Virus record (IMG/VR): IMGVR_UViG_3300027985_001099
Span: 1-57,897 of that record
Reading direction: 5' to 3' (one strand)
Origin: a virus
Lineage: Duplodnaviria; Caudoviricetes
DNA: 57,897 nucleotides
Part shown: in pieces, positions 3,364 to 28,986 of the stretch
How positions within the stretch are numbered: position 1 is the stretch's first letter
Layout of the letters: the number at the start of each line of letters is the position of its first letter
Translations under genes and position numbers: made by a program
Notes under the pieces: generated by a model
What the model was told of the DNA's origin: nothing
Seen by the model: only the letters and a program-made list of their open reading frames with translations
Databases searched by the model: none

Positions 3364-3386
3364 CCTTGGTCCCCAAATCGTGTAAG

Positions 3387-4559: not shown

Positions 4560-4561
4560 GG

Positions 4562-10195: not shown

Positions 10196-10240
10196 GTTAT
10201 CTCCTATGGGGGCGCCATTAGACGCCCATCATAGTCTGGG

Positions 10241-11014: not shown

Positions 11015-11047
11015 GTCAACATTCCTTGTCGAGTAGGTTTAATTCGC

Positions 11048-12571: not shown

Positions 12572-12574
12572 GAC

Positions 12575-12883: not shown

Positions 12884-12901
12884 ATGTCCTCCCGCAGGCG
12901 G

Positions 12902-12922
12902 AAAAGCGGCCCGAAGGCCGCT
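12902..12922 (-). terminator. Intrinsic terminator after major capsid gene
   Basis: Minus strand AGCGGCC-TTCG-GGCCGCT followed by T tract. Confidence 0.75.
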
Positions 12923-12934
12923 CCTTATTCACGG

Positions 12935-13972
12935 TCAGGCGATGACCGTAGCGTACAGGCTGGCATTTACCCGACCCGGGATCATCAGGGGGGCGCTCTG
13001 GTTCATGATGAACACGCCTGACGGGTCCTGTTCGCTCCACATTTTCGGGAAAATCGGGGTCGCCTGGTAGCTAGCTTCATGGTCCAGGATGGCCCCGAAA
13101 GCCCGAGTGCCCTCGTACCGGGAGCTGGTCAGCACCACCGCTTTGGGGTCCATGAACGGGGTCACGTTCCCAGCGGCATCGTGATAATAATCACTGTACA
13201 CGTATACGGGCAGATTGGGTGCGACGTGGCCAACGAACTGAGATACCTCGCCGGTACGTGGGCCCAAGTCCAGGTTGGCCACCGTGCCGCGGGTTTGCAT
13301 GTTCAGCAGGGCCAGTACCTCGGGGTCTTTTCGCATTACATCCCACGCGTCTACCCCGATCGTTATCCGGTTGCACGGACCGCCAAATGGCGCCCGCAGC
13401 ATCAGAGTCTGCCATGCGGTAAGGTAATCGACGATCGAGATACCGGTATCGCCCCAACGGGCACCCACACCCAAGGTGATGGTGTGGCCGGCGGCACGAC
13501 TGAAATCGACCGTAACCTCCGGATAATCGTCACCAGACACGACGACTTTACCGGTCATCGCCACCTGGGCCGCCATCCACTCCCAACGGCGCTCGATGGA
13601 GTCGCGGTGGGTTTGCATGGTGTCGGCGATGATGGCCTGGATCCGGGATTCCGGGCTGGCTGACCCTCCGTAGGCTTCCCCAGCGCGGCGCTTGAGCGCA
13701 CGGGACGGGTTGACCGGGTCTTTCGGCTTTACGTACGCCGGCTTAAACCGGGTTACAGAAAAGCCGTCGGACATCACCGGTCGGCCTTTAACATTCGGGG
13801 CGACGAATGGAGCCAGCCGGCGCCCGGCGGCGTCGATCTTTTCGAAATCGATGTATTCGGTGTCGAACGTTTGGACATACGGAAACAGCAGGTCCAGCCA
13901 GTAGCTGGACGGGGATTCCAGTTCTCGCATCACCCCCATGAGGGTGTGGGTGTTGTAGATCTCGATGGCCAT
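12935..13972 (-). CDS. Major capsid protein (lambda E family)
   Basis: RRLAPFVAP, FKPAYVKPK, ERRWEWMAAQ and QSAPLMIP motifs. Confidence 0.95.
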   Translation of the reverse strand: MAIEIYNTHTLMGVMRELESPSSYWLDLLFPYVQTFDTEYIDFEKIDAAGRRLAPFVAPNVKGRPVMSDGFSVTRFKPAYVKPKDPVNPSRALKRRAGEAYGGSASPESRIQAIIADTMQTHRDSIERRWEWMAAQVAMTGKVVVSGDDYPEVTVDFSRAAGHTITLGVGARWGDTGISIVDYLTAWQTLMLRAPFGGPCNRITIGVDAWDVMRKDPEVLALLNMQTRGTVANLDLGPRTGEVSQFVGHVAPNLPVYVYSDYYHDAAGNVTPFMDPKAVVLTSSRYEGTRAFGAILDHEASYQATPIFPKMWSEQDPSGVFIMNQSAPLMIPGRVNASLYATVIA

Positions 13973-14031
13973 TTGGCGCTCTCCTTAGCTATATTGGCGG
14001 GCCGCCATTCCGTGGCGGCCACTGCCTAGAC

Positions 14032-14433
14032 TTAGAACCCTACTGCTTTCAGGAACAGGGAAGGCGCGCCAGCGATCAGGGCCGCTTCCTTCTTCAAATC
14101 AGTGTCGAATGAAGCATCCCACACTACCATGGCCGGGTTGAATTGGCCGGTGCGGTACACGTTACAGGGCTTGTCCGCCAGGGAGGCGTTTACCGCGTAA
14201 ACCGCAAAACCAAACACGTTTTGCGAACCGTCTACCGCGCTCTGTACACACGGGACCAGCTTGCCGGAGGCAGTTACCCGCCCCAGCGCCTGATATGCCA
14301 CTACCGTTTCCCCAGACAGCAGCGTGCTCTGGATGGTGGTGACAGGAAAATCCCCGGTGCGCCAGTTTTGCACGGTGACGCTTTCGCCGGAGTTACTTGC
14401 GATATGCAAGCTGCTGTAATCAATTTCGGCCAT
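14032..14433 (-). CDS. Head decoration protein (lambda D-like)
   Basis: ASGKLVP...DGSQ...YRTGQFN motif, between protease and capsid genes. Confidence 0.85.
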   Translation of the reverse strand: MAEIDYSSLHIASNSGESVTVQNWRTGDFPVTTIQSTLLSGETVVAYQALGRVTASGKLVPCVQSAVDGSQNVFGFAVYAVNASLADKPCNVYRTGQFNPAMVVWDASFDTDLKKEAALIAGAPSLFLKAVGF

Positions 14434-14436
14434 TTT

Positions 14437-15681
14437 TTATCGCTCCTTGCTGGCTTTCGGCTTGGCGCCGGTTACTTGGCGGTAGGACGCCATGATTTGC
14501 TTAACCGGGTCCGCCGCAGCGTCCGTGTCGGTGGATTCGGATTGCAGATTCGGGTTACCGGTTTCGACCATCGCCTGGTCAAAGGACGTACCCGCGGGAG
14601 GCGTGGCGGCCGGGGCAGCCGGTTCAACCGGCGCTGCCGCGAGTATGCCGCGGGCCTGCTCAGCGGTCAGGTCGGTTTCCATAGCCAGGTGGTTGGCCAG
14701 TTTTCCTCGGCCATTAGCCTCTTGGCAGGACAGAATGGCCTGCAGACGCTGGCGTTCGGCTTTGGCGCCGGTGGCGCGCTCGGCGGCCGGATCGGCTACG
14801 GCCTGGGTGTTGTCAGTTTCCGTTGACATATACAATGCTCCTTTGACCACTCGGGCCTCAAAATCCTGCAGCGCCGCCGCTGCCGGTTGAACAACGTCCG
14901 CCAGACCGGCTTCCAATGCCGCTTCTGGCCCGTACACTCCAGCTTGCGTTTCTCGTACCACCGACTCATCAATGCCGCGATTTCTGGCGACGGTACCCAC
15001 AAAGATATTGTACAGAGAATCGACTCTCGATTGAATCCGGGCTTTGGCCTCGTCGGTCAGATCATGGTACGGATTGCCGTCGACTTTATGGGCTCCCGCG
15101 TAGATCAAGGTCACCTTGACCCCGGCGTTGGCCAAGGCTGTTTCACGTGAAACATGCGTGGTGACGACACCGATCGACCCGACAAGGCCTGTGCGAGGCA
15201 TACTGATCTTGCTGGCGGCAGAAGCCAGACTGTAACCGGCGCTCAAAGCGTGATCGTTGACAAACGCCTCAATGGTCTTTTTCTCTCTGGCGGCATAGAG
15301 GAAATCCGCAAGGTCAAAATTGCCGGAAGCGTCGCCCCCGGGGGTGTTGTACACCATAGCGATTCCGCGGACATTGGGGTCCGTAATTCCCCTGCCTACG
15401 GCTTCCTGGATGTACCGGTAACCCGTGAACCATCCGGACATAGTCCCGCTTATCCCATTCATCAAAATACCGCTAACCGGTACCTGGAGAACGCCATTCT
15501 GAACGTTATACGGTCGATACCAGGCGAAGTCCGGGTGCCAAAAATCCGCAGCAGCCATCTGCTCTGTCGGGATCTCGGTGTCCGTGGCTAGTAGCGCATT
15601 CAGCAACTGGACCTTATCCGCATTCAGCAGCAACTCGGCATCCGCCAGAGCAACGGCAAACATCTCACTGATTTTGGCCAT
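14437..15681 (-). CDS. S49 prohead protease/scaffold (lambda C/Nu3-like)
   Basis: NTPGG, ALSAGYSLAS, VGSIGV and HKVDGNPY motifs; C-terminal AERQRLQAIL scaffold; ATG 15681 chosen over upstream 15729. Confidence 0.9.
   Translation of the reverse strand: MAKISEMFAVALADAELLLNADKVQLLNALLATDTEIPTEQMAAADFWHPDFAWYRPYNVQNGVLQVPVSGILMNGISGTMSGWFTGYRYIQEAVGRGITDPNVRGIAMVYNTPGGDASGNFDLADFLYAAREKKTIEAFVNDHALSAGYSLASAASKISMPRTGLVGSIGVVTTHVSRETALANAGVKVTLIYAGAHKVDGNPYHDLTDEAKARIQSRVDSLYNIFVGTVARNRGIDESVVRETQAGVYGPEAALEAGLADVVQPAAAALQDFEARVVKGALYMSTETDNTQAVADPAAERATGAKAERQRLQAILSCQEANGRGKLANHLAMETDLTAEQARGILAAAPVEPAAPAATPPAGTSFDQAMVETGNPNLQSESTDTDAAADPVKQIMASYRQVTGAKPKASKER
15139..15154. promoter_or_regulatory. 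parS: parS site 1 (perfect TGTTTCACGTGAAACA), inside the protease gene
   Basis: Exact match to the bacterial chromosomal parS consensus palindrome; encodes (H)VSRET. Confidence 0.85.
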
Positions 15682-17287
15682 CGGTGGCGTCTCCTTCATC
15701 CTCGTCGCGATCGGTTGGGCTCTGGCCATCTTGTTCCTGGTTTCCGGAAACCGTTACTTGCTCCGTAACTAGCCCTAGCTTCTCCATCATCACCCTCTCG
15801 CGCTTGCGCTGCCTAGCTACTTGGCGCCAGTCCTTACCCAGGCGCGCAAGCTCATCTTCGTATGTGGATAGCCCCTTTTCGATCCGCATAACTGCGGCCT
15901 GTGTTTCCTTCAATTCGTCAATCTGGCCGCGACTGGCGCCGACCCATTCGCACGCAGAATATGCTTCCGCGTTCAGCCCCTCGTACCAGCTCGGCGCATT
16001 TGGCGGCAGCTTGATCAGCCCCTTGTTTAGGGCTTCTTCCAGCCACAGGCGGTACACCTGGCTAGCGAAGGCATCTGCGACCATGTGCTTGCGTGACTGC
16101 ATATACTTCCAGGTCTCGGCCATCGCGGCTCGAGCACTGGAGTAGTTTGTCTGGGTGTAGTCGCGGCTCAACTGCTCGTAGCTGACCCCCAAGGCCGCGG
16201 ATATGTGCCGTAGCAATGACTGCTCAAAGCTGGTACCTACCCCACCGGGGGAATTTGCGTTTTGCAGATGGAGCTTAGTTCCGGGGTACAGGTGGGGCAC
16301 CTTAACCCCATCTATGGCTATGTTGTTTGACCCGCCAACGTACTGAGCTATGGCCTCAAGGTAATCTGTAGCCCATGCGCTAGACCCGCCGGTACCGAGC
16401 TGGGCGTACGCAACTTCTGGGGGAAGCTCGGATTCGATTGTGGCGGCGTACGTTGCGTTCAGCACCGCATTCTGAAGCACAACATCCCGATACCGGGAGG
16501 TCATCTTCATCTCTTTCAATACCGATACCATCTCGGCCACGCCGCGGGTCTGGCCTGGGCGCATCTGGTCAGGAACGATGTGGATAATTTGCGGCCGGCC
16601 CCACGGCTTCGCTGCGGGTACCCGCGTCCATTTGAAGGCGCGCAGGTCGGTGGCATAGTCCCCGGGATGTGCGTTGCGAATGTAATAGGCTATGGGCGCT
16701 CCGTAAAAATCGAGCTCGATCCCCCGGCGCAAAAACCGGCTATCGTTGACTCCGTCTGGGTTGCTGAGCCGGTCGGGGTCTATCATCTGAATTGCGGTGG
16801 AAAAAGGGCGATCGCTGCGCCGGATCCATTCCACTGATGCCAGGGTTTCTCCAGACAGTACTGATATCCCGACAGCCAGTCGAACTAGCGCCGTGAAGGT
16901 ATTGCTGCGACTCGCATCCACGTGCTTGCGCGGAGACTCGGCCCACAAAGTGAATAGCCCTTCGACCTGCTCTTGGAACTGCTCAGCCCATTCCTCGGTA
17001 AGTCCCAGCAGTTGCCAATTTGGCTTCGCGCTTAAACAGAATTGCGCCCCAACGATGTTGTCTCGATGGATGGCGACGCCGCCGCGGATATAACCGTCGT
17101 TACGCGCCATGTCCCGAACTCGAGCGTCGAGAGTCTGCTTCTCCGGGAGCATTTCCCGGTCCGCAGACTGGACAGGCGGTGACCACAAAGCCAGCTCGCG
17201 AGACAGCCGACTAGAGCCCTCGTAGGCCCCTCCGATGAGCTTGACCCCTGGCGGGTCCTCCTGCAAAAACTCGTCGATGGCAGACAT
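15665..17287 (-). CDS. Portal protein, lambda family
   Basis: RPGQTRGV, SRDYTQTNYSSARA and GQIDELKE motifs. Confidence 0.95.
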   Translation of the reverse strand: MSAIDEFLQEDPPGVKLIGGAYEGSSRLSRELALWSPPVQSADREMLPEKQTLDARVRDMARNDGYIRGGVAIHRDNIVGAQFCLSAKPNWQLLGLTEEWAEQFQEQVEGLFTLWAESPRKHVDASRSNTFTALVRLAVGISVLSGETLASVEWIRRSDRPFSTAIQMIDPDRLSNPDGVNDSRFLRRGIELDFYGAPIAYYIRNAHPGDYATDLRAFKWTRVPAAKPWGRPQIIHIVPDQMRPGQTRGVAEMVSVLKEMKMTSRYRDVVLQNAVLNATYAATIESELPPEVAYAQLGTGGSSAWATDYLEAIAQYVGGSNNIAIDGVKVPHLYPGTKLHLQNANSPGGVGTSFEQSLLRHISAALGVSYEQLSRDYTQTNYSSARAAMAETWKYMQSRKHMVADAFASQVYRLWLEEALNKGLIKLPPNAPSWYEGLNAEAYSACEWVGASRGQIDELKETQAAVMRIEKGLSTYEDELARLGKDWRQVARQRKRERVMMEKLGLVTEQVTVSGNQEQDGQSPTDRDEDEGDATDGQNQ

Positions 17288-17499
17288 CAGAAATACACCT
17301 TGGCCGGACCGGATACCTGGCTAGAACTTCCGGTAATCTGGATCTGCAGGTCAGCAATATACTGGGCAAGGCGAGAGGCATTAGCAGGCGTGAACTCAAC
17401 ACGTTCACCATTTTGGTCGACTACGACGCGGGGAGACGTCCCCGTCATCAGGCTATGATAGGCCATTATCGCGGCATCCAGCCGCTCCTGCAGGGTCAT
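17287..17499 (-). CDS. Head-tail joining protein gpW
   Basis: AYHSLMTG...VVDQNGERVEFT...LAQYIADL. Confidence 0.85.
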   Translation of the reverse strand: MTLQERLDAAIMAYHSLMTGTSPRVVVDQNGERVEFTPANASRLAQYIADLQIQITGSSSQVSGPAKVYF

Positions 17500-17628
17500 A
17501 TCCGTGACTCCAGCTAGACTATTCTGGGCATTATATCAGGGTGAGCTCGAAAAACGCGCAAAAAATTGGCCCGTATTCAGGCCAGAGACTATATCGATGA
17601 TGCCAGATACACCAGTCGGCTACGAGGT

Positions 17629-17644
17629 CGTTTCACGTGAAACA
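17629..17644. promoter_or_regulatory. parS: parS site 2 (CGTTTCACGTGAAACA), intergenic between terL and gpW
   Basis: 15/16 match to parS consensus. Confidence 0.85.
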
Positions 17645-17783
17645 TCAGGGGGGCCTAGCCGCTCCGAGCTAAATTAAGCGAGTCCGTTCGCGCCACCCTT
17701 CGCCCGCATACCACATCCGTGTGGCCTGTTGGGTTCCGTCCCGATGCCAGACGAGACCAGATTACTCCTGGCGCAAATTTGCA

Positions 17784-19853
17784 TCAAGCGAGTTGTGACG
17801 CGATTTTCGCCAAACGTGACGAGTTCCGATTTTCCACCCGTGGTTTGCCCACTTGCCGCACCATGGAATTGTCGTCCCACTCGGCGGCCCAGGAGGGCGG
17901 GGCGTCCCAGTCGATGTGCTCGAGGGCTATCCATCGGGTTAAGCACAATGCGGCGTCATAAACCAGGTGATCCCACGCTTCGTTGCGCTGCCGGCGTGTG
18001 TTTTCCCATTTCCCTTTCGCATTCTTGGTCTCCACGGTTAACTCACTGTATACCGAATCCGGGAGCCACATGGGGAAGTGGATCATCCCCCCGCCCGGGG
18101 TCACCCGGTCTAATTGTTTATCAATCCCATCCTTGACTAAATCGGTGTTGATCCGCAAAACAGGGACATCCCCACGGGCGCCGGCGTGCCTGTCTTTGCG
18201 TTCCGAGTCCGGGTAGGTTAGCTGGATACGCGGCGACGCGGCGGTACCATCGCCCTTTACTAGCAAAAATCTACTCTGCAGCTGGCCGTCCACCCCCCGG
18301 AGTTTTCGCCAGAAATCGTAGGCCTTTGCGGTTACCCCTTCGCGGCCGCCAGAATCACAGGCCGTCATTTTTATGGCCATGGTTCGACCAGAGCCGTCAC
18401 TCAACGGGTACTCCTTGCGGATCACCTGGTCTATCAGTAGGTCCCAGTCCTCTAGGTACGCCCCAGGGCTAATCCACTCGCGATCGCCGTCGGCATCCGT
18501 GCGGTTGGACTTGCGGATCTCGAAACTGTCGATTATCCACTTATCCCCGGCCACGCCAGTCCCCTGTACTTGAACCCGGAAGCTGTGCTTTTGCACGTCA
18601 ACGCACGCTGTCAAAAACCGCGTTTCACGTGGAACAACGCGCTCCCCCAGGTCCTCGGCGCGGGCCTTTAGGTTCTCGGGAAGCCTCTGAACGGCCAACT
18701 GTTTAGGCACATACGGCAGGCCCTGATCGGTATTGACTGTAGTCTTGAGCGCAATTTCAGACCCGGTGCTCTCGTACTCAGCCACGGCCTGCAGGTACTT
18801 TAACATCAGGTCTGACCAGCTGGCGAAAGCCGCGCACACCCCTTTCAGCCAAAAACTGGCGATATTGCTGTATGCTGGTGTCCCGCCCCGGTTACCATCC
18901 TTGTCGATAGTCTCGCCATCGCGTAGCCAGACCCCACCGAGATTTAGCTCTCGTTTGTCCGCGTGGGTGTGTACCCCGCCGCAAAACGGGCAGACCATGA
19001 CCGTGCTTTTTGCGGCTTCGCTGGGATCCGGGTCGGTTCCCGGTACCAGCAAATGGAAATCCGGCTCAAACCATTCCTGGCAATGCTGGCACTGCCAATA
19101 GTACCGGCGCCGGTCACCGCGGTTGTACAGCGCTAGGATCCCCTGCACGGGTGGGGCCTCGTGACGGGACCGCGGCATCCAGTCGCGTTGCTCGATATTG
19201 TACCCGGGGCTGGACTCAGCTACCGTCATCGCGTAGCGCCGGAATGTCGTGGTGCGCTTTCTGGCTAGGTCGAATACTGCGCCCTCGCCGTCAACGTCTA
19301 GCGGCATTCGGTCGATGTCCGTGATCCAGACGTAGCGAAAGGCCCGGCTCGATAGCTGGTTAACAGTTGGCCAAGCCATGCTCAAATACATTCCGGACCG
19401 ATACAACTTGGTGTATATGCTGTCTGCTTCTTTACGAGGCACCAATTTGGCCCCAACGGCTCGAGTCCATCGGTGAAAACGGTTGATGCGGATCTTGGAA
19501 AACTCTCGGGCGTTCTTTTCGTCCATGTGGACTATGAGCATGTCTGACGGGTCGGTATCGACGGTGTGCCCTATCCAGTTGAAGACGCAGTCTGTCTTCG
19601 CTGACTGCGCCGGGCCGACAAATATCGCGGCCTGAAACTTGATCGATGTCAATGTTTGCATGAACTCGACCATGTATGGGACCACGTCATTGTCCCAAGG
19701 GCCGACAAACGCCCCGGGTGTATTCAGATACCGGTTTTTTTCGGCCCACTCGTCGACGGTAAAGTCCTCCGGGGGACGCAGACCCTCGGCGCAATCCGCG
19801 ACGATCTCCCCGAGGAAGCCGTACCTAGTCGGTTGAGCCCTCTTGTTCGCCAT
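17784..19853 (-). CDS. terL: Terminase large subunit (lambda gpA family)
   Basis: Deviant Walker A GPAQSAKT, ESSP, CQHC/CPFC zinc site, VDVQ, DSGG and RNEAWD nuclease motifs. Confidence 0.95.
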   Translation of the reverse strand: MANKRAQPTRYGFLGEIVADCAEGLRPPEDFTVDEWAEKNRYLNTPGAFVGPWDNDVVPYMVEFMQTLTSIKFQAAIFVGPAQSAKTDCVFNWIGHTVDTDPSDMLIVHMDEKNAREFSKIRINRFHRWTRAVGAKLVPRKEADSIYTKLYRSGMYLSMAWPTVNQLSSRAFRYVWITDIDRMPLDVDGEGAVFDLARKRTTTFRRYAMTVAESSPGYNIEQRDWMPRSRHEAPPVQGILALYNRGDRRRYYWQCQHCQEWFEPDFHLLVPGTDPDPSEAAKSTVMVCPFCGGVHTHADKRELNLGGVWLRDGETIDKDGNRGGTPAYSNIASFWLKGVCAAFASWSDLMLKYLQAVAEYESTGSEIALKTTVNTDQGLPYVPKQLAVQRLPENLKARAEDLGERVVPRETRFLTACVDVQKHSFRVQVQGTGVAGDKWIIDSFEIRKSNRTDADGDREWISPGAYLEDWDLLIDQVIRKEYPLSDGSGRTMAIKMTACDSGGREGVTAKAYDFWRKLRGVDGQLQSRFLLVKGDGTAASPRIQLTYPDSERKDRHAGARGDVPVLRINTDLVKDGIDKQLDRVTPGGGMIHFPMWLPDSVYSELTVETKNAKGKWENTRRQRNEAWDHLVYDAALCLTRWIALEHIDWDAPPSWAAEWDDNSMVRQVGKPRVENRNSSRLAKIASQLA
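18621..18636. promoter_or_regulatory. parS: parS site 3 (CGTTTCACGTGGAACA), inside terL
   Basis: Matches the GTT(T/C)CACGTG(A/G)AAC parS core; encodes VPRET. Confidence 0.8.
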
Positions 19854-20547
19854 CCGTGGCCACCATGTCGTCTAGGGTCACATCCAGACCCAATTCCCGA
19901 ATCTCGCTCAGGGTATTCTCCCCGTCCTTAGTGTCTCGCTGCTCTACCATCCGCATATGCAGCTCATCCAGCAGGGACCGCACCGCCCGGTCGAGGTATA
20001 TCCGCTGGTCATCGTCCAGGGGCGACACCCGATCTACGTCTTCTACCCAAAGCCGAGTGACGTTTTTTATCAGTTTGAAACACTCGCCGAATTTAACCGC
20101 CACGTCCTCGGCACGGAATAGAAACCCTGCGGTTTCCTCCCATTTCTGGCGTTTCAGCATAGCGTCCCAGTAGTCCTTTTGAATGGCTACCGGGAGGTCC
20201 TTAGGCTTGATGCTTTGCAGGTATTCGTCCATGTCGACAACCGGATTGCACAAGTACGGCGCAGCATCGGCGATAGCCCATACCGGGCTACCGTTGACCA
20301 ACGCGACGGGCTTCAACACTCCGATCTTTCTGGAAACCGTCTTTTTGTCTAAATGGAATATGCTGGCCAGGGCCGTAAGGCTAACCCCCCCGATCAAATC
20401 GCTTATGCCTAGCTGCGACGGCTTGGCCGTGACCTGCGGCGTGCCCGCGTACAGCTCCTGCATCTGCTCACGATTTTCAGCTCGGGTGACCGCGGCCTTT
20501 TGCCCAGCCTCGCTCGCGCCTACCGTTGACCTAGGTTTCCTTGCCAT
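19825..20547 (-). CDS. terS: Terminase small subunit
   Basis: HTH-like N-terminal region, LPVAIQKDYWDA motif, overlaps terL start. Confidence 0.85.
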   Translation of the reverse strand: MARKPRSTVGASEAGQKAAVTRAENREQMQELYAGTPQVTAKPSQLGISDLIGGVSLTALASIFHLDKKTVSRKIGVLKPVALVNGSPVWAIADAAPYLCNPVVDMDEYLQSIKPKDLPVAIQKDYWDAMLKRQKWEETAGFLFRAEDVAVKFGECFKLIKNVTRLWVEDVDRVSPLDDDQRIYLDRAVRSLLDELHMRMVEQRDTKDGENTLSEIRELGLDVTLDDMVATDGEQEGSTD

Positions 20548-20609
20548 CCTTGGCTACTCAGCTAGTCCTCGTACCCAATAGACTAACACGAATTCCACGG
20601 GGCATGGAA

Positions 20610-20888
20610 TCAGGCGGGGCGTTCCGCCACCACCTTAACCTCAATGGTCCGCACTGCGGTGCGGCCTGCCGCCGTGCTGATCGTGTTCGTGACTGTGTAG
20701 CTAACCCCCTCGGTACCGCCGGACAGCCAAACCTTGGCATCCGTGCTGGTGTGCTCGGACCCGGCGATAGTGATCCCATCATCCGCTCGCCAGGTTGATG
20801 TGTTGATCGTGTCGGTACCGAGCCATCTGGCCCAGCGGATATCGTAGTCTAGCAGTTCCTCGGAATCCTTTATGAACAGCATAGTCAC
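20610..20888 (-). CDS. Putative fibre adaptor protein
   Basis: KDSEELLDYDIRW..WL...VWLSGGT.G..Y.VTN.I.T..GRT resembles phage fibre-adaptor families (recalled, not searched). Confidence 0.55.
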   Translation of the reverse strand: MTMLFIKDSEELLDYDIRWARWLGTDTINTSTWRADDGITIAGSEHTSTDAKVWLSGGTEGVSYTVTNTISTAAGRTAVRTIEVKVVAERPA

Positions 20889-21847
20889 CCTCCTGGGATC
20901 GTATCGTTGGTCCGGGTCTCGTGAGCAACCAAGGCCCGTACCTCGGGCTGCACCTCGGCGCCCCTTGTCTCACGACAAATCGAGGCCTCCCGGGTACCCG
21001 GTGTCGGGTCAACCCGCCTGGCGTCCGGTTCGACCAGTCGAGTGCGCAGCTTCGGCGCGTCCAGGAACGTCACCTGCACATACGCCATAATCGCTCTAGT
21101 GCTCTGCCCGATTACTGCAACACCCTCTAGCGGACGAAATGACTGCAGCTTGGCGGACACGATAGCGGGGCAGGCCGCAGCGTTTGCCTCCATGGCGACC
21201 GTTGCCACCAAGTCGGCATAGGCCATCACTACCGAGGCCGCAGTACCTTCCAGGGGTTTTTGAACCTCAAGGGATCCAATAGCCCCTGGAGCCGCCAAGG
21301 TGTCGGCGGCTAGGATTACTGTGGTTTCAAGACTCGCGGACCCTAGGGCGACAACGGCAGCTTCCCCGGAAATGGCTACGTAGACCTCGAGGTTACCGAG
21401 GGCAACCGCCTCGGCCGAAACCTCCGCGGCTAGCCGGGTCTCGGTGGTAAGTTCCGCCGCAGCTTCTGCCGACAGCGCGCAAGACCCAGACAGTAGCACT
21501 TGGGTTATTACGCTAGCCGACGTACCAACTGACGAACTCACCTCGGCCGATAGCGATACTTGCGTTTCGAGGGACGCATTGACCGCGGGCGACGATACGG
21601 CCGTGCCGGCAAGATTGTGCGCAGTTCCCCCGGCGAACGTTGCCTCCGCCGACGACACCACCGCCGCCGACCCCGATATGGGGTTTACGTTCTCAACCAG
21701 CCACTCCACGGCTATTTGAGTGACCCGGGCGTGTACCTGTGGGTCACTCACCAACAGCTCCACGGCTATTTGAGTGACCCTAGCGTCTACTGCATCAACC
21801 GAAACGAGCCATTCTTCCGCGATCTGCGTTATACGGGCATCGGTCAT
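20885..21847 (-). CDS. Ala/Val/Ser-rich repeat protein, putative fibre scaffold
   Basis: Three ARVTQIAVE-like repeats followed by about nine 20-aa repeats; coupled start/stop overlaps with neighbours. Confidence 0.55.
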   Translation of the reverse strand: MTDARITQIAEEWLVSVDAVDARVTQIAVELLVSDPQVHARVTQIAVEWLVENVNPISGSAAVVSSAEATFAGGTAHNLAGTAVSSPAVNASLETQVSLSAEVSSSVGTSASVITQVLLSGSCALSAEAAAELTTETRLAAEVSAEAVALGNLEVYVAISGEAAVVALGSASLETTVILAADTLAAPGAIGSLEVQKPLEGTAASVVMAYADLVATVAMEANAAACPAIVSAKLQSFRPLEGVAVIGQSTRAIMAYVQVTFLDAPKLRTRLVEPDARRVDPTPGTREASICRETRGAEVQPEVRALVAHETRTNDTIPGG

Positions 21848-22893
21848 GTCACAATCTCAACCCCGATGTTAGCCGAGTTCGCTCCGGCGGCAGTCCAGGC
21901 CACGCCGGTGTTGGGGTCGGTTTGGAAATGGTCTATCTGCTGGCTATACGCGTCCGTGGACGGTGACCACGATAGGCCGTTTCCCGTAACCGCGCCGGAT
22001 TTCACAATGGCCCGAATCGTCCGGCTGCCAGCATCGGTTTTTTTGCCTCGGTGCTTAACCGCCATGTTGTATATCGTCGGGCTACCTGAGAGCGCCGGGA
22101 ATGTGAACGTTGACTTGTGTCCTGCTGTATTTCCGTACAGGTACCCAGCGTCACCGTCACCGCCCCCCGTATCATTGACCAGAGTGTTGCCGACAGACCC
22201 TGAGGATTTCAGCAAATCTGCTTGTGCCGTGTCCCCGTTAGGCAGGTTCGTGATAAAGCGCTTATCGCTGATCGGGACCGTGAACGCGCTGGCGTCTTGC
22301 ACGATGTACCAATCATCAACGTATTTTGCTGGGGTGCCCGAGGCTGCCGTCCCCTGGCCGGATAAACACATGTATATAACATTATTGACGGTTTTCAGGT
22401 CACTGGCGGACACGCTAACCGCCGGGTCCGGGTTACCGTTTAAGTGGATCGCCAGAGTGCCCGCGGTGCCGTGCCAGTACAGCCGAACTTCAACGAATTT
22501 CCACAGGCCCGGGGGGACGACATTGTCCGCCGACGAACCTAACACTGTCAGGGCGTCACCGTAAACGGTGAGTCCGTTGTTGGCGTTGACGTACACCCCC
22601 GCATGTGTGGTCGGGCCATTTTGGTATGTCTTGGAGTCAGAAAACTGCAACAGACATGAGTTCTGCGCCCCGTTATCAAACTTGTGCGCAAAGCCGGCCT
22701 GCACGTACGGCAGGGCGGGGTCTAACAGCCGGGATAGGTTATTAAGCGTGTACTGGTACTGGAGACACCCGCCACCGAAACGCCCCCCGGATGGGAGGAA
22801 TGTGGTGTTGGACTCGGTTGCGGAATAGTTGTTTGCTGGCTCTGTGGTGTCGCCGTATAGGTCGAAGCCATCCTGCCACGTTAAAGTCGTCAT
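21844..22893 (-). CDS. Putative virion fibre/receptor-binding protein (lectin-like beta-sandwich)
   Basis: DGFD N-terminus, WKFVEVRL...GTLAIHLNG and YVDDWYI LamG-like motifs, DPNTGVAWT C-terminus. Confidence 0.55.
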   Translation of the reverse strand: MTTLTWQDGFDLYGDTTEPANNYSATESNTTFLPSGGRFGGGCLQYQYTLNNLSRLLDPALPYVQAGFAHKFDNGAQNSCLLQFSDSKTYQNGPTTHAGVYVNANNGLTVYGDALTVLGSSADNVVPPGLWKFVEVRLYWHGTAGTLAIHLNGNPDPAVSVSASDLKTVNNVIYMCLSGQGTAASGTPAKYVDDWYIVQDASAFTVPISDKRFITNLPNGDTAQADLLKSSGSVGNTLVNDTGGGDGDAGYLYGNTAGHKSTFTFPALSGSPTIYNMAVKHRGKKTDAGSRTIRAIVKSGAVTGNGLSWSPSTDAYSQQIDHFQTDPNTGVAWTAAGANSANIGVEIVT

Positions 22894-22943
22894 GATGGCT
22901 CCCCTTTGTGTCGTCAGGACGGGCGGCTGAAAGCCGCCTCGAA

Positions 22944-23384
22944 TTAGTTATCGAACTGCACTGACAGGTTCGCCGCCTGGAATACCGGTGCCGAGTCACC
23001 ATTGTTGATGGTTTTTGGCACCGTCAGGGCCCCGTAGATGAGCTCGTTACCGCCACTGGAGGCGTCCATTATGGCAAAGTGGGTGACCAGGCCCCAGTCG
23101 GCGGTCGGGGCCGGAAACGTAATGGGGTTGTTGTTCGATGTGGTGCCGCTGGTACCGGTCGACGCTGTGGTGGACCCTGCCGCCTGGGTACCTGCCCAGT
23201 TTGCCAGGGAGCAGGTAATCGCAACTCGGGCGTAGGACCCACCGGAAACCTCAGTACCACCGCCCGCGTCGGCCGGCGCCGAGGTAAACAGGGCGACATA
23301 CACGGTAGCCGGCGGAGTAAACGCCTGGCCACGGAGCATCCAGTCGATCAGTTTGTTTTCTACGTAGTCTGAAAAAGCGGACAT
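22944..23384 (-). CDS. Putative fibre subunit
   Basis: MSAFSDYVENK...VYVALFT...EVSGGSYARV...ITFP.PTADWG..THFAI.DA.SGGN, a widespread phage fibre-like family. Confidence 0.65.
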   Translation of the reverse strand: MSAFSDYVENKLIDWMLRGQAFTPPATVYVALFTSAPADAGGGTEVSGGSYARVAITCSLANWAGTQAAGSTTASTGTSGTTSNNNPITFPAPTADWGLVTHFAIMDASSGGNELIYGALTVPKTINNGDSAPVFQAANLSVQFDN

Positions 23385-23456
23385 GTTGTGTTCCCTCACG
23401 TTTCAGGCCCATCCTGGGCCATTAGGTGCCATTTTACGCCAGCATACCGGCGTTGG

Positions 23457-24824
23457 CTATTTCAGCAACAATCTCCGGGCTTGAACCAGAGCGTGCTGTA
23501 GTGTGCTCCGTCCGGCCAATACTTCGAGAACCCGGTAGTCCAGAGTCCCTTTAGCCAGCAGGTGATGGATGAAGCTGGGGCGGGTTTGCCCCGGGCGATG
23601 AAGCCGTTTGTTGAGCTGCTGGTATTGCTCTAGCGACCAGGTCAACCCGAACCACACGATGATCGACCCGCCAAATTGCAAGTTCAGGCCATGGCCTCCG
23701 CTCTGAGGGTGGACCAGCAAAATGTCGATCTTTCCGGCGTTCCAGTCGCGGACTGCGTTATCCTCCTGGTTTAGAACTACGGCCTGGGGGTACCGCTGCT
23801 TGATGCGTTGCATGTCCGTTTTGTAGCTGTATGCGACTAATACCGGATGCCCCGCAGCGGATTCGATCAGGTCATCTAGCGCCTCCAATTTGGCTGAGTG
23901 TACCTCGTGCGGCTGCCGCTCACCATCGTACACGCACCCGTTCGCAAATTGGAGCAGCTTGTTAGTTAGGATCGCCGCCGTCTTAGCCTCGATCAGGCTC
24001 TCATCCTCGGGGAGATCCAGCAGGTACTCCTTCGCAAAGTCACGGTACTGACGGGCTACGGTATCTGGAAGGCTAACGGGAATGTTGTTGTAGGTTACCG
24101 GCGGCAACTTGGGGTAATACTCCGCCGGCAGGCTATAGCATAACCCATCTAGTGCCGTCTCGATCTCCTGGGCGGCTCCCTTTCGGAGGGTGTACGTCCA
24201 TCCGGTATAATCCTCGTCAAACCACCGGCGCCTAAAACTGGTAACCGTTCGGCCAAGGGCCACGCCGGCGTCTAGCAAGAACACCTGAGCCCACAGGTCA
24301 ATATACCCCTTTGGCGCCGGCGTGCCGGTTAGCTCCACAAAGCGGTCCATGTGCTTACGGACAGAACAGACGGCCCCAAACCGGCTGAGCCGGCCAGTAC
24401 CGGTTCTGCGCTTGTGGTTTTTAAGCCCTGAGCTCTCGTCCCATATGACCATGTCGTACGGCCACTTTCGCCCATGTAGCTGTACCAGCCAGGGAATGTT
24501 CTCCCGGTTGATTATGTGGACCGGGGCCGGGTCAAACGCGGCTTTTTCCCGCTTAGCCACTGGTCCTACCAGTACGGAATAGGGCATCCACTTGGTGTGC
24601 TGCCAGCTGCCAATCTCATCGGGCCAAACGTCAGTGGCCACGCGTTTAGGCGCCACAACCAGGACCTTCCCGACCTCAAAGCTCATCAGCAGGTCTGCCA
24701 CCGCGGTCAGCGTGATCACGGTCTTCCCGGCGCCCATGTCCAACCAAAGCGCAATAACCGCCTGCTGTACCACCAGGTTCGAGAAATACGGCTGGTAGGG
24801 CCTAAGCTGAGATCGCGTCAACAA
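23457..24824 (-). CDS. SNF2-like superfamily 2 helicase
   Basis: DMGAGKT, DESS, LTGTP, GHGLNLQ and RLHRPGQ motifs. Confidence 0.95.
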   Translation of the reverse strand: MLTRSQLRPYQPYFSNLVVQQAVIALWLDMGAGKTVITLTAVADLLMSFEVGKVLVVAPKRVATDVWPDEIGSWQHTKWMPYSVLVGPVAKREKAAFDPAPVHIINRENIPWLVQLHGRKWPYDMVIWDESSGLKNHKRRTGTGRLSRFGAVCSVRKHMDRFVELTGTPAPKGYIDLWAQVFLLDAGVALGRTVTSFRRRWFDEDYTGWTYTLRKGAAQEIETALDGLCYSLPAEYYPKLPPVTYNNIPVSLPDTVARQYRDFAKEYLLDLPEDESLIEAKTAAILTNKLLQFANGCVYDGERQPHEVHSAKLEALDDLIESAAGHPVLVAYSYKTDMQRIKQRYPQAVVLNQEDNAVRDWNAGKIDILLVHPQSGGHGLNLQFGGSIIVWFGLTWSLEQYQQLNKRLHRPGQTRPSFIHHLLAKGTLDYRVLEVLAGRSTLQHALVQARRLLLK

Positions 24825-25089
24825 GGCGAAATCCCTTCGCTAGGTCATCAATAACGTACACCTCAAACCCTCGGTCCCGCAGCTCCTTATGCCGCAATAG
24901 CTGCTGTGAGGTCGGGTCTTCTCCCGGGGCTTTAAACTCTATGAACACGGCCTTACCGCGGCGCATTAACATCCGGTCAGGTCGGCCCCGCGGGACACCC
25001 CCTGACAACTTGTACACAAGCCAGCCAAAGCCGGCCGCATAGTCACACACTGACCTCTCTATGTGCGATTCCCGATACGTCTCGCCCAT
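24802..25089 (-). CDS. VRR-NUC nuclease
   Basis: ES.IE...GRPDR...FIEFKAPG...Q. Confidence 0.9.
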   Translation of the reverse strand: MGETYRESHIERSVCDYAAGFGWLVYKLSGGVPRGRPDRMLMRRGKAVFIEFKAPGEDPTSQQLLRHKELRDRGFEVYVIDDLAKGFRLVDAISA

Positions 25090-25099
25090 CCTGAGCCTC

Positions 25100-27163
25100 C
25101 TAGTCCTTGCGATAGCACCAACTGACGTAACCTGCAGCTTTCAACGGTAGCCCCGGCGCCCAGCTTGGTACCTGCTCCATGCACTCTATAAGCTCGTGCA
25201 GCCCTTGGTCGGGGGCGCTGCCGTCTGTGACCGATACGATCTCATCATGTACGTGCAACACAACCTCAATTCCTCGCCGGTCGGCTTGTACCAGCCCGTG
25301 GGCCAAAATATCCCGGGACACCGCCTGGTCGATATTCTCCGCCAGCTTGCCTGGGTGTGTGTTGAGCCGCACCCACTGTTTGCGCTCGTTTAGTCCCTCG
25401 TAGGTAATGCCGAGATGGTAGTCACCCCAAGGCATCCGGCACATTTCCAGAGCCGGCCTGCAGTAGTGCAGGCGGCGACCTGACGGCAGCAGGATCCGCA
25501 TAAACGGCCCATCGATATCGAATATCACCCGTCTAGCCCCCTCGCCAACTGCCTGTGGCTCGTGACTGGCAATGCAAAGTCTAGCCGCCTTGTCCAGGGC
25601 CCACCACCAATCGACGACCTTCGTATACGTGGCCCGGAAAACCTTAACCGATAGCTCCGCTTGTTCCGGTGTGAGGCGTACCCCCATATCCCAGGCGTAC
25701 CCAAGCAGCCCCGTTGCCGAGACCTCGCCAGTCTTTGGGTCCTCGATAACCTGCCCCTTGCTGAGCATGTACCCGCAGCCGAGAACCCCGGGCTTGGCCA
25801 CCGTGCGCTTAGTCTTATCCCCAGCTTTGTACTCCGCTTCGAGCACGGAATACGGCTTGTCGTAGATGTAGGTGGCAAAGTCTAGGTACGGACACCGGCC
25901 GGCTGCGAATACCTGAAGAATCTTTGGCTCGTCGGCCAGCCAGCCAAGTACCCGGTTTTCTATGGCGTTAAGGTCCGCTACCGCCAGGGCCTGCCCCTCG
26001 GGTGCCTGGATAGACCCGCGTACGCAAGATGACAACGTATCCATGACCGGTGCCGGGGATACCACCGATAATACCGCTGCAGATAGGTCCCCAACATCGC
26101 GCACTGCTTGCGAGTACTCTGGGTCCTTCTCAAGGGCTTTAACCGGTCGCGCCAGATTCTGCCCCTGTAGGATCCGGCCGGCAAACCTTCCAGTACGGAG
26201 AGCCCCTAAAAACTGAATCGTATTGCGTAGCCTACCGTCGGCGTCCACCGCCCGTTGAATGGCGTGGTATTTTTTCACGCTCGTCTTGGCAGACTGTTTA
26301 CGGAGCTCAAGTACCCTCCGCAGCTGACCGGACAAGGCCTCATCTTCGAGGGCCTTGCGGATGTGCCCCTTTTGCAAATCGTTGAATGGGTACCCGCGGG
26401 ACTGCGCCCAGGGGAGCAGCTGAGTGGCCGAATTGGAGTTAGCTAGCCTAGTTATCCGGTTTTGTTCTCCCAGCAGGTGCTGCAGCTCATCGCGGATTAC
26501 TGTGCAGGCGTTGTCGACCATGCGGAGGTTGATGGGTAGCCCGGCTTCGTTGATCCTGCGGTCAAGTCGCCACAGTTCAATCTCGCTATCCAAGGGCGGC
26601 CAGCGGCGAATGCGTCGGAATATGGCGCGCTCCGCGGCCACGTCGCGCCGGTTATAAAGCTTGAACGTCTCCCAAGCCTCCGGGTCTGTTGTCCGGTCCC
26701 GAAATCCGCCAGCAAAGGTTTTGGTTTTCGCATTGGGCGTACAAAAGCGCCGTATCAACGCCCTACCCTCCGCCATCTTCAGGTATTCTTCCGGCAATTT
26801 GATAACCTGGCCTGCCTTTTCCAGCTTGCCCGGTATCCCGAGGGACATGGCCCAGGCCATGGTGCAAAACCACTGGTGCAGGTCCATCGGGATCTGCAGG
26901 ACGTGCTCGAAAATGGTGAGCTCAAACGCCGCATTCCAAGCCTGCTTGCGTACCGATGGATCGCGAAGGAGACCTAGTAAGTCTTTGCCCAGGGTCTGTC
27001 CCTCGGCAAACACCACCTGCTCAATTGGGTCATCATTGACTGCCCACGACAGCATCAACGCCTCGGTGGAACGGTCCCGGGCATAACGGCTGACTCCGTC
27101 TTCTATGTTCCGCTTAGACCGGGTTTCGAAGTCCAAAAACAAGTAATCCATGGTGTTCCTCAC
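25100..27163 (-). CDS. pol: DNA polymerase, family A, with 3'-5' exonuclease
   Basis: LDFETRS, WNAAFE and YNRRD exonuclease motifs; TGRFA, ADLNAIE, R..AK...LG.GY and HVHDE polymerase motifs. Confidence 0.95.
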   Translation of the reverse strand: MRNTMDYLFLDFETRSKRNIEDGVSRYARDRSTEALMLSWAVNDDPIEQVVFAEGQTLGKDLLGLLRDPSVRKQAWNAAFELTIFEHVLQIPMDLHQWFCTMAWAMSLGIPGKLEKAGQVIKLPEEYLKMAEGRALIRRFCTPNAKTKTFAGGFRDRTTDPEAWETFKLYNRRDVAAERAIFRRIRRWPPLDSEIELWRLDRRINEAGLPINLRMVDNACTVIRDELQHLLGEQNRITRLANSNSATQLLPWAQSRGYPFNDLQKGHIRKALEDEALSGQLRRVLELRKQSAKTSVKKYHAIQRAVDADGRLRNTIQFLGALRTGRFAGRILQGQNLARPVKALEKDPEYSQAVRDVGDLSAAVLSVVSPAPVMDTLSSCVRGSIQAPEGQALAVADLNAIENRVLGWLADEPKILQVFAAGRCPYLDFATYIYDKPYSVLEAEYKAGDKTKRTVAKPGVLGCGYMLSKGQVIEDPKTGEVSATGLLGYAWDMGVRLTPEQAELSVKVFRATYTKVVDWWWALDKAARLCIASHEPQAVGEGARRVIFDIDGPFMRILLPSGRRLHYCRPALEMCRMPWGDYHLGITYEGLNERKQWVRLNTHPGKLAENIDQAVSRDILAHGLVQADRRGIEVVLHVHDEIVSVTDGSAPDQGLHELIECMEQVPSWAPGLPLKAAGYVSWCYRKD
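26629..26686 (-). repeat. 58-bp exact repeat, copy A (in pol)
   Basis: Reverse complement is identical to 44135-44192. Confidence 0.95.
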
Positions 27164-27165
27164 GA

Positions 27166-27181
27166 CGTTTCACGTGGAACA
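27166..27181. promoter_or_regulatory. parS: parS site 4 (CGTTTCACGTGGAACA), immediately upstream of pol
   Basis: Identical to site 3; lies between a hairpin and the pol start. Confidence 0.8.
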
Positions 27182-27203
27182 AAGCCCCGCCTAGGCGGGG
27201 CCT
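27181..27203 (-). terminator. Hairpin/weak terminator between ssDNA-binding gene and pol
   Basis: GCCCCGCC-TA-GGCGGGGC followed by TTTGTT on the minus strand. Confidence 0.55.
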
Positions 27204-27208
27204 GCGAG

Positions 27209-27802
27209 TCACTCCCACTGGTCGGGTGCGCCCTCGCCATCGTCCTCGTCCTCGTCGAAATCCTCGAAGTCCTTGGCGGTGGCCGAAGCGGCGCCGATCT
27301 TCTCCCCATGAGCGGCAAACTTGATGCCTTCCAGGGAACAGTTCACCTGCCGGCCTGCGGCGGCTTCCATGGCGTAGAATCGGATCATGGCGTGAACGTA
27401 ACACCCGCCATAAATTGTGCCGTCGTCCGTCAGCAATTGCTGCTGGCCGCGGAATACCGGAACCGGGCCCTGGGATTCGGCGCGGTTGGCCGACAGGTAA
27501 AAATGCCCTTTATACAGGTCCCCGGTGCGCCCGCAATTGTCTGAGTCACCGTCCCGAAGGGCGCAGTTGTCAAACTTGAGCTTGACCGCTTCCCCAGGCC
27601 ATTTTGCCTCGAATGCCGCCTTAATCGCCTTTTTGATCTGGGCTATGGCCTCTTTGTCGGCTTCTTTGTCAAAGTAGAACTCCGCGCCATAGCGGGGCTT
27701 GCCGTCACCACCGTCATTTTTCACGGTTTCGGCTTTGTAGCATTTCGGATACAGCATCCGCACCCGGCGCAGTTTCACCTCGGTATTCGGTTTCTCAGCC
27801 AT
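27209..27802 (-). CDS. ssDNA-binding protein (DUF2815/gp2.5-like)
   Basis: LRDGD, IYGGCYV and LEGIKF...GEKIG motifs; acidic C-terminus. Confidence 0.9.
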   Translation of the reverse strand: MAEKPNTEVKLRRVRMLYPKCYKAETVKNDGGDGKPRYGAEFYFDKEADKEAIAQIKKAIKAAFEAKWPGEAVKLKFDNCALRDGDSDNCGRTGDLYKGHFYLSANRAESQGPVPVFRGQQQLLTDDGTIYGGCYVHAMIRFYAMEAAAGRQVNCSLEGIKFAAHGEKIGAASATAKDFEDFDEDEDDGEGAPDQWE

Positions 27803-27828: not shown

Positions 27829-28986
27829 CTAATCCTCGCCCAGGTCTGCCAATGCCGCGCCCGGATCGGTTACCGGGGGGCGTCTATCACTCGCGGGTGC
27901 CAGCACTACCTCGCCTTGCGCTCGCGATACTAACGACGAGACCTGCGTGCGTAGCGCCTTGGGTAACCGCTTCTCTATAGCGGAAGGGCTCAGCATTTTA
28001 GTCTCGTAAATTTGATCTGGGTCAATTAACCATTGCAGAATGAAAGCCGCGGCCTGGTCATCGCGCCACTGCCGCTTGGTTCTGGACGCCACAAGTTTGA
28101 AGCCCGGGAAAGCTTCACCGGCCTTCATCCGGGCGGTTGCGTGCGCCTCAAGGTTGTTGAGCCAATGTCGGACGGAATCCGCAGCCTCAAGCAACTCGAC
28201 GACCTGGTCCGTGCCCAAGTGGTCGACTGGCCGAAGCGTCGTATCCGTCCCGACGAGACCGGTCATGTGCTGCGCCAACTGGGGGCAGCGGGGCGCGAAC
28301 CGGCAGTACCTGCACTGGACCTCACCGGGTACCCGCGGGGCATCCGGCTGGAGCGCCAAAGTGGCCACTTTCTTCACACGCTTCCCAAACTGCAATACCT
28401 CGGCTGTGGGAAGCTCCCACTCGACCAGCTTGTCGCCGTAAAAAATCCTGGGCTGATATATCCGAAACCGGAAACGCTTTATGCGCTCGGGTAGTCCGAA
28501 GGCGTTGAAGACCCCAAGGCCGTAGATCTGCAGCTGTTCTCGGGCATGGGCTACGCCTAGACCCCACTTCAGGTCCTCAACAAAGATGGTGTCATCCTTC
28601 GACCCGCCTATGTCCAGGGTTCCAAATCCGTTGGGTATCCATCTGGAAAGGTCTACCCGCCACTCGGAGCAAATGTCGTCGTGTTCGTCACGGATCGAGT
28701 TCACGACCCAATCCAGATGATCGATCACCTCGTCGTCCACCAGGAAATCACACGGAGCTGAGTCGTCACGACGGATCTTGATGACGTCCCCGAGGTAATC
28801 CGATGGCTGGGTACCGTTTTTCAGACAGCGCTCTAGCAGCATATGTGCTGCGGTACCCTCGGACGCTTCAACCCCGGATATATGGGGCCCGTATAGGGCT
28901 GCCATGTGCTGCTCTGCCTTGATGGCCCCCGGGCAGCGCATCCACTTTGGGGCCGCAGAGGGCCCCAGCAGGTGATGTGCCGACAT
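27829..28986 (-). CDS. DUF2800 Cas4-like PD-(D/E)XK exonuclease
   Basis: H.LLGPS.A.KW..CPG, EGTAAH, FGTLD, DLKWG, QLQIY and C..C....C motifs. Confidence 0.9.
   Translation of the reverse strand: MSAHHLLGPSAAPKWMRCPGAIKAEQHMAALYGPHISGVEASEGTAAHMLLERCLKNGTQPSDYLGDVIKIRRDDSAPCDFLVDDEVIDHLDWVVNSIRDEHDDICSEWRVDLSRWIPNGFGTLDIGGSKDDTIFVEDLKWGLGVAHAREQLQIYGLGVFNAFGLPERIKRFRFRIYQPRIFYGDKLVEWELPTAEVLQFGKRVKKVATLALQPDAPRVPGEVQCRYCRFAPRCPQLAQHMTGLVGTDTTLRPVDHLGTDQVVELLEAADSVRHWLNNLEAHATARMKAGEAFPGFKLVASRTKRQWRDDQAAAFILQWLIDPDQIYETKMLSPSAIEKRLPKALRTQVSSLVSRAQGEVVLAPASDRRPPVTDPGAALADLGED

Follow-up and report, generated by a model that had tools for sequence, protein, structure and literature searches.

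Four chromosomal-type parS sites and a ColE2-type replicon in the complete genome of a Chi-like siphovirus

Why would a phage that looks lytic by gene content, and in which no partition gene can be recognized, carry the centromere word of bacterial chromosomes four times? The question is posed by IMG/VR virus record IMGVR_UViG_3300027985_001099, a Chi-like siphovirus with four 16-mers of the parS type within 12.0 kb of its 57.75-kb genome. The window analyzed here is the whole record (57,897 bases), which has direct terminal repeats and is rated 100% complete; 144 bases are identical at both ends, giving a unit genome of 57,753 bp. The comparisons below make it probable that the four 16-mers are selected loading sites for the chromosome segregation protein ParB. 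What the phage would gain from loading is a separate question, for which a plasmid-type replicon found in the same genome suggests a tentative answer.

The four sites and their lineage

Two of the sites lie within genes. The first, parS1 (positions 15139 to 15154, TGTTTCACGTGAAACA), is a perfect 16-bp palindrome and encodes residues 193 to 197, VSRET, of the head maturation (prohead) protease (14437 to 15729, minus strand; phrog_53, E = 5.8e-105). The third, parS3 (18621 to 18636, CGTTTCACGTGGAACA), encodes residues 407 to 411, VPRET, of the large terminase subunit TerL (17784 to 19853, minus strand; phrog_15, E = 1.3e-215), and the two are translated in the same phase. The others are intergenic: parS2 (17629 to 17644, CGTTTCACGTGAAACA) is in the spacer between the genes for TerL and a gpW-like adaptor, and parS4 (27166 to 27181), identical to parS3, is between those for a single-strand-binding protein (SSB) and the DNA polymerase PolA. 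Read on the minus, coding strand, sites 1 to 4 are TGTTTCACGTGAAACA, TGTTTCACGTGAAACG, TGTTCCACGTGAAACG, and TGTTCCACGTGAAACG. Against TGTTNCACGTGNAACA, which has N at positions 5 and 12 and is the usual chromosomal consensus, the mismatches number 0, 1, 1, and 1. All 14 specified positions agree with this consensus in every site except for the outermost base, where the single mismatch of parS2, parS3, and parS4 falls. Scored on the single consensus used in the initial annotation of this DNA, the mismatches are 0, 1, 2, and 2. That annotation had reported four such 16-mers clustered in 12 kb, with the one at 15139 perfect, two read in frame in the protease and TerL, and two between genes; all four were located where it had placed them, and gene coordinates and translations confirmed the division. 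A reading of the motif as an RNA hairpin was set aside, since the change at position 5 of sites 3 and 4 is uncompensated at position 12 on the transcribed strand.

The number of sites exceeds chance expectation, as had been claimed. Base composition predicts 0.006 sites at one mismatch or less, for which the Poisson probability of four or more is ~6e-11. In 100 dinucleotide shuffles the mean was 0.17 matches at up to three mismatches and none of the 100 reached four; no mononucleotide shuffle among 200 yielded more than 1, and their mean was 0.01. The half-site heptamers GTTTCAC and GTTCCAC occur near their expected frequency outside the four sites, and the flanks of the sites have no mutual homology that would point to a copied fragment of host DNA.

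The coding sites were compared with the proteins and genes of relatives. At the position of parS3, 38 of the 38 nearest TerL homologues read VVP-x-Gly-(Val 30, Ala 7, Thr 1)-Arg-Phe, just ahead of a conserved DVQ motif. The phage reads VVP-Arg-Glu-Thr-Arg-Phe, so that Glu410 replaces the glycine found in all 38 and Thr411 replaces the Val, Ala, or Thr. Across a wider set of 158 TerL loci, glycine occurs in 117, glutamate in 2, and Arg-Glu-Thr in none, and the DNA of these relatives at the homologous 16 positions has 6 to 12 differences from any form of parS. In the protease, the family norm at the parS1 position is Val-Asp-x-Ser-Lys/Gly/Glu; among 76 relatives the residues of VSRET are found at their respective positions 37 (V), 8 (S), 1 (R), 6 (E), and 0 (T) times, and the DNA is off parS at 9 to 15 of 16 positions. 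Rare or unique residues thus occur in both proteins, which argues for selection on the DNA word: judging by these alignments, the coding sites are selected at the DNA level and are not by-products of the protein sequence. The initial annotation had argued that protein constraint cannot explain the sites, and this argument stands, given a glutamate where 38 of 38 homologues have glycine and protease residues (S, R, E, and T) shared by 0 to 8 of 76 relatives. It had left to an alignment of homologues whether the VSRET and VPRET codons are lineage specific, and they prove to be so, with RET absent from all 158 TerL relatives. Since unusual residues have been forced into a terminase and a prohead protease, both probably essential to judge by their families, the selection must be strong.

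The closest cultured phages are Chi-like siphoviruses, for which we take Casjensviridae to be the family name, and the best match is Achromobacter phage AchV4 (TerL identity of 52.9%). Identity of TerL to AchV4, DSS3-P1, BcepNazgul, and Chi-type Salmonella phages ranges from 47 to 53%, and among the best 120 of 4,756 homologues, drawn from ~5.8 billion proteins, none exceeds 59%. A single-protein TerL scan of IMG/VR likewise returned no close relative. Because no TerL above 59% identity is found among those best 120, the phage appears to represent a lineage without a close sequenced relative. No parS at two mismatches or less was found in 80 IMG/VR loci of TerL relatives (1.11 Mb). At one mismatch or less there was none in 80 loci from named bacterial genomes (1.56 Mb), which hold five at two mismatches, and none anywhere in 17 related virus records that are 94 to 100% complete. 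On this sampling, the sites are a trait of the phage's own lineage and not of its family.

Centromere words, partition genes, and hints of a host

By sequence, the 16-mer words of the phage are those that serve in real chromosomal centromere arrays. In one Achromobacter genome, found by way of a related phage contig, eight sites are packed into 1.2 kb immediately ahead of gidA-gidB-parA-(acetyltransferase)-parB, the one-mismatch variant of the phage among them. In Aeromonas encheleia (named from its GyrB and DnaN), which has one ParB, four sites extend over 10.7 kb of the dnaA-dnaN-recF-gyrB region (3312 to 14024 of sequence L312), and two of the four have G as the outermost base. The word of site 1 and that of sites 3 and 4 stand 2.2 kb apart in Oceanisphaera pacifica. 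The phage sites vary as natural centromere arrays do, at position 5 (T or C) and at the outermost base. Of 103 Aeromonadaceae genomes, 34 contain the exact variant TGTTYCACGTGAAACG; in samples of 121 genomes from each of two orders, it is present in 34 for Burkholderiales but is rarer, at 4, for Pseudomonadales. A reversed-pattern control had at most one matching genome per set. An order-wide tally at one mismatch or less (248 of 301 genomes) was uninformative, with about one chance match per genome by estimate, and the clustered arrays alone were used. As a separate observation, Aeromonas chromosomes have a conserved four-site dnaA-gyrB array of perfect and outermost-G sites, which is like the phage set in number, span, and make-up.

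Variants of this kind are functional in Pseudomonas aeruginosa. Its parS1 and parS4 sites have a mismatch at the outermost base and are bound nearly as well as perfect sites, and a strain with parS4 as its sole intact site has a wild-type phenotype with sufficient segregation (PMC4368675). In strain PAO1, 9 of 10 parS sites are in coding sequence (PMC4368675), and by this analogy a position inside genes would be normal for chromosomal sites. The P. aeruginosa cluster parS1 to parS4 (PMC4368675) and the Achromobacter, Aeromonas, and Oceanisphaera arrays share with the phage the 16-bp words, including the outermost-base variant, the spread of several sites over ~10 to 16 kb, the mix of perfect and one-mismatch sites, and, often, a location in coding sequence. 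The phage differs from these clusters in having no parA or parB in cis and in that its only recognizable origin is 28 kb away.

No binding protein for the sites was detected in the phage itself. A six-frame search with Pfam ParB_N gave nothing at an E value of ≤1; the same search was positive in 11 of 14 control genomes. Scans of open reading frames (ORFs) against PHROGs and Pfam, including relaxed thresholds and small ORFs, gave no match to ParA, ParB, integrase, or repressor families, and no phage-borne ParB or other site binder emerged from relaxed Pfam matching, the small-ORF scan, or a protein atlas (two unassigned proteins). There was also no helix-turn-helix or ParB-like signal in the unassigned ORFs. 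Many ORFs have no assigned function, and a repressor could be among them. Neither a cognate parA-parB pair in cis nor a nearby origin thus accompanies the sites. Because parA and parB are missing and the cluster is far from the ColE2-like origin described below, we regard the sites as orphan parS sites, and with no ParB encoded by the phage, recognition would fall to host ParB.

The lysis genes comprise an endolysin with a SAR-type N terminus, a holin, and Rz/Rz1-like spanins (weak matches, E near 1e-4), a set that indicates a diderm (Gram-negative) host. The initial annotation had drawn the same conclusion from the SAR endolysin and spanins, and it agrees with what was found. Hints beyond this are weak and conflicting: the nearest cultured relative grows on Achromobacter, the replicon is Aeromonas-like, and the parS variant is common to both groups. 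Because Aeromonadaceae and Burkholderiales score alike, the variant survey cannot point to a host. The cultured relatives mostly infect Proteobacteria, and TerL relatives in named genomes are scattered over many Proteobacteria at identities of ≤54%. The 613-amino-acid tail fiber has no homologue at an E value of ≤1e-10, the C-terminal part of the J-like protein gives three weak matches, and no tRNA gene was found in the phage genome. The only sequencing runs in which the DNA was detected may be those from which it was assembled.

A ColE2-type replicon and the use of the sites

The gene at 48458 to 49441 (plus strand) encodes a ColE2-type replication initiator, Rep, with an AEP primase "Replicase" domain (PF03090, E = 1.5e-35) and a C-terminal helix-turn-helix; residues 290 to 319 give weak matches to GerE and sigma-70 region 4. 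Rep is 66 to 70% identical, over 94% of its length, to the replication initiators of small Aeromonas plasmids. It matched 3,061 plasmid records, none of 50,697 phage records, and none of the 17 near-complete related records, and in IMG/VR it gave three weak helix-turn-helix matches only. A search with the Rep family was positive in the window and in a plasmid control and negative in three of three relatives. Plasmid homology at the DNA level covers 48494 to 49593; of 164 matching records, Aeromonas accounts for 138. An origin-like block recognized in the plasmid alignment (49437 to 49471, plus strand) overlaps the rep stop and continues directly past it, with a hairpin and T-run after it, and its 35 bases are nearly identical to those at the same position in two Aeromonas plasmids. 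It is this position and conservation that lead us to label the block an origin, which we take to be of the ColE2 type.

The ColE2-class origin is at or just past the 3' end of rep (PMC5304414), and the primer synthesized there by ColE2 Rep, a primase specific for its origin, is elongated by DNA polymerase I (PMC4538821). The module resembles replicons of this class (class C theta) in its AEP-primase Rep with a helix-turn-helix and in the short origin-like block past the rep stop (PMC4538821, PMC5304414). It differs from them in being embedded in a phage that has a PolA-family polymerase and in lacking upstream control that is conserved at the DNA level. In ColE2 an antisense-RNA copy-control region is found upstream (PMC5304414); because plasmid homology begins at 48494, inside rep, no conserved region of this kind is seen in the phage. 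The G+C content of the module is 61.5%, compared to 57.4% for the genome, and rep is part of a block of phage genes on the plus strand. A 26-kb contig produced by a different assembler, possibly from the same reads, spans the module without a difference; in one small sequencing run, 4 of 30 bins were uncovered and the left edge of the module was not bridged, and two other runs resemble a single data set deposited twice, which may be the source of the record. A plasmid-type replicon is therefore present in a complete phage genome in which neither partition genes of its own nor a repressor was recognized.

This replicon, which the initial annotation had missed, favors a plasmid-like maintenance role for the sites. 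Replicon and centromere sites are two lineage-specific gains that together supply both cis requirements of a stable plasmid, and for this reason we favor partition in a carrier state. The phage lineage would have acquired four parS sites of the host-chromosome type and kept them under selection. After entry, host ParB would nucleate on the four sites and close round the DNA as CTP-bound clamps, which would spread over the region from ~15 to 27 kb and its flanks, where genes for replication, packaging, and the head are found. The resulting partition complex would be a substrate for host ParA and possibly for SMC. Most likely, the sites would serve to position the phage genome and to segregate it actively while it exists, unintegrated, as a plasmid-like episome in growing or starved cells; the episome would replicate from the captured ColE2-type rep-origin module, and the late genes that carry the sites would be silent in that state. 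We infer the binding and spreading of ParB, the episomal state, and its benefit to the phage. Taken as a whole, namely that these are selected host-type parS sites that load host ParB for the partition of a plasmid-like episome, the proposal is plausible at somewhat less than an even chance. In its most specific form it describes a minimal kit, a captured ColE2 rep-origin and four host centromere sites that arose in place, two of them through recoding of conserved terminase and prohead protease residues. The phage would contribute no trans-acting genes for partition or lysogeny, and the episome would be segregated by host ParABS; this form we consider rather unlikely, and if true it would be a new way for a phage of Gram-negative bacteria to live as a phage-plasmid or in a carrier state.

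Several observations weigh against an episomal use. Plasmid homology begins 36 nucleotides inside rep, and rep is in the phage's own gene block; this extent of homology and this position would suit lytic replication as well as a plasmid state, and rep could simply serve lytic replication beside the phage's own PolA. Plasmids of the ColE2 type are small and multicopy, so that they need no partition. The center of the parS cluster is 28.3 kb from the origin-like block, nearly opposite to it on a genome whose half length is 28.9 kb; chromosomal parS sites, by contrast, are origin proximal. The ORF scans recognized nothing for lysogeny, whether a repressor, an integrase, or another gene, and Aeromonadaceae and Burkholderiales are not told apart by the parS variant. 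With TerL identities of at most 59%, there is also no close relative in which persistence of the sites over time could be followed.

A lytic benefit from host ParB is the main rival and a real possibility, though on balance not a probable one. The initial annotation had listed DNA positioning, SMC loading, and ParB titration as alternative roles. Hundreds of parS copies could drain ParB from the host origin and so disturb segregation or division, or SMC could be recruited and replicating phage DNA placed in the cell. All of the evidence for selected, host-type parS applies equally to such uses. The gene content looks lytic, with no lysogeny gene recognized, and rep stands in the phage's own block without the upstream control region of plasmids. 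The sites also flank the terminase genes, and a similar placement, next to terS-like and TerL genes, is seen for the three perfect parS sites of an unrelated 59.7-kb phage. Nothing in this analysis speaks for titration or SMC loading themselves, however, and a lytic benefit leaves the replicon, unique among the relatives examined, unexplained in the same genome. The strategy is moreover seen in none of the 17 near-complete relatives, though some of these infect ParABS-bearing hosts.

The surroundings of the intergenic sites raise the possibility that the motif is the operator of another protein, either a phage regulator of unrecognized fold or a host transcription factor, and resembles parS incidentally, or that ParB acts here as a roadblock or silencer. 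The TerL-gpW spacer (17500 to 17783, minus strand) is 284 nucleotides long, compared to a median of 39 nucleotides, by rough estimate, in 80 relatives, of which 77 have ≤157 nucleotides. Besides parS2 it holds a terminator-like hairpin (17584 to 17567, minus strand), which comes after parS2, and a TATAAT box ahead of gpW, read by eye from the sequence; these two elements suggest a separate promoter for the head genes. The fourth site is bounded by the SSB stop (27209) and the PolA start, and on the coding strand a GC-rich hairpin (27184 to 27201) is followed by parS4 and then by the ribosome-binding site and start of PolA, again as read by eye. Sites 2 and 4 are therefore at operon junctions, by terminator-like hairpins and upstream of gpW and PolA, and among the many ORFs of no assigned function there is room for a regulator. 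In P. aeruginosa, raised ParB is reported to strengthen repression of promoters adjoining parS3 and parS4 (PMC5521831), which would suit a silencer. Two of the phage sites are deep within genes, however, the 14 specified positions match in all sites save for the outermost base with the variation of natural arrays, and the unassigned ORFs give no helix-turn-helix or ParB-like signal. We consider an operator or silencer improbable.

About equally improbable, or slightly more so, is that the sites serve as camouflage or counter-defense, through a ParB coat that makes the DNA look like self or shields the packaging-site region from nucleases or SMC-family defense. The selected sites do cluster 1.9 to 6.6 kb to either side of the start of terS, the gene for the small terminase subunit TerS (19825 to 20547, minus strand; PHROG and Pfam scans). 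The records of cultured relatives start just upstream of terS, and by analogy the cohesive-end site of the phage may lie near the terS start. This position is an inferred one, however, no defense or anti-defense genes are found in the context of the sites, and literature searches returned no precedent. That the sites are functionless, left by chance, hitchhiking, or recombination with host DNA, is very improbable: no close relatives exist to demonstrate long-term conservation, but the Poisson probability given above, the several substitutions that two sites needed against conserved residues in essential genes, and flanks without the shared homology of a copied host fragment all oppose it.

Parallels in other phages and genome context

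The initial annotation had named phi29 of Bacillus as a precedent for phage-borne parS, and the precedent holds: phi29 has five parS sites and uses host Spo0J for spore entrapment, and its relative Nf also has parS (PMC2731898). Like phi29 and Nf, the phage described here is of a lytic type, with no partition genes recognized and with several ParB sites of the host-chromosome type; phi29 uses part of the host segregation machinery to move its genome (PMC2731898), and the phage described here probably borrows that of its own host. The Bacillus phages differ in having a Gram-positive, spore-forming host, in which entrapment in the spore works together with Spo0A boxes (PMC2731898). For the phage in question a diderm host is indicated, two of the sites are in essential genes, and the genome is that of a 58-kb Chi-like siphovirus with a plasmid replicon; entrapment in a spore former does not apply. 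The phage-plasmids P1 and N15 have lysogeny control and encode ParA and ParB proteins that go with a centromere sequence of their own. They resemble the phage in combining a tailed-phage genome with a plasmid replicon and centromere sites. In the phage, by contrast, no such genes are recognizable and the centromere word is that of the host chromosome.

A second phage has parS beside its packaging genes. This phage (G019; complete, 59.7 kb, 44.7% G+C) is unrelated to the first and has three perfect sites, at 3643, 3799, and 10943. Two share an intergenic region 1.7 kb ahead of a terS-like gene, and the remaining one precedes TerL by 126 bp.

Perfect parS words turn up often in IMG/VR contigs (at least 137 stretches). 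The longest ORF beside each listed word was scanned against PHROGs. Among the 134 ORFs thus obtained from the stretches listed, 7 matched one DNA-polymerase family, 3 matched TerL families, 2 more were annotated "terminase," and 6 matched endolysin families; none of the 134 matched a partition-protein family. Some of the contigs listed have five copies of parS in ~1.5 kb. Several others, of 8 to 18 kb, have parS in or beside a DNA polymerase, and one has it beside an upper collar connector, presumably the pattern to be expected of phi29-like phages.

Full-text literature searches, which reach few subscription journals, brought up no report of a lytic-type phage with a Gram-negative host that carries parS of the host type. 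The recoding of conserved residues in two essential genes is new, as is the pairing of parS with a ColE2-type replicon. If host ParB does load on these sites, the exploitation of host centromeres by lytic-type phages is not confined to Bacillus phages entrapped in spores and reaches Gram-negative hosts. The pairing of parS with a captured replicon offers a testable model of inheritance for a phage without lysogeny or partition genes, which bears on the poorly understood phenomena of pseudolysogeny and carrier states, on the prediction of lifestyle from sequence, and on the choice of strictly lytic phages for applications. The four sites would also be a natural system in which to study how transcription and DNA packaging proceed on DNA loaded with ParB.

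The remainder of the genome is that of a siphovirus by PHROG and Pfam scans. The lambda-like module for packaging and the head, encoded entirely on the minus strand, includes the genes for the gpW-like adaptor (17287 to 17499), portal (15665 to 17287), decoration protein (14032 to 14433), and major capsid protein (12935 to 13972) in addition to TerS, TerL, and the protease, and the genome also has a long tail module. The replication module consists of PolA (25100 to 27163), a helicase (23457 to 24824), the gp2.5-like SSB (27209 to 27802), an exonuclease (27829 to 28986), and a primase (30526 to 33099). By PHROG assignments, the genome thus has the lambda-like head and packaging module and the PolA-helicase-primase replication module of Chi-like phages.

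Two minor features were observed. Six TerL homologues (P0017, P0023, P0053, P0058, P0082, and P0096) are ~1,000 amino acids long and carry Pfam PF14528, which we take to be a domain of the intein or homing-endonuclease type; an insert of this type is absent from the phage's own TerL. The lysis genes are split, with the Rz/Rz1-like spanins at 33707 to 34340 and the holin and SAR-type endolysin at 53304 to 54025, 19 kb away.

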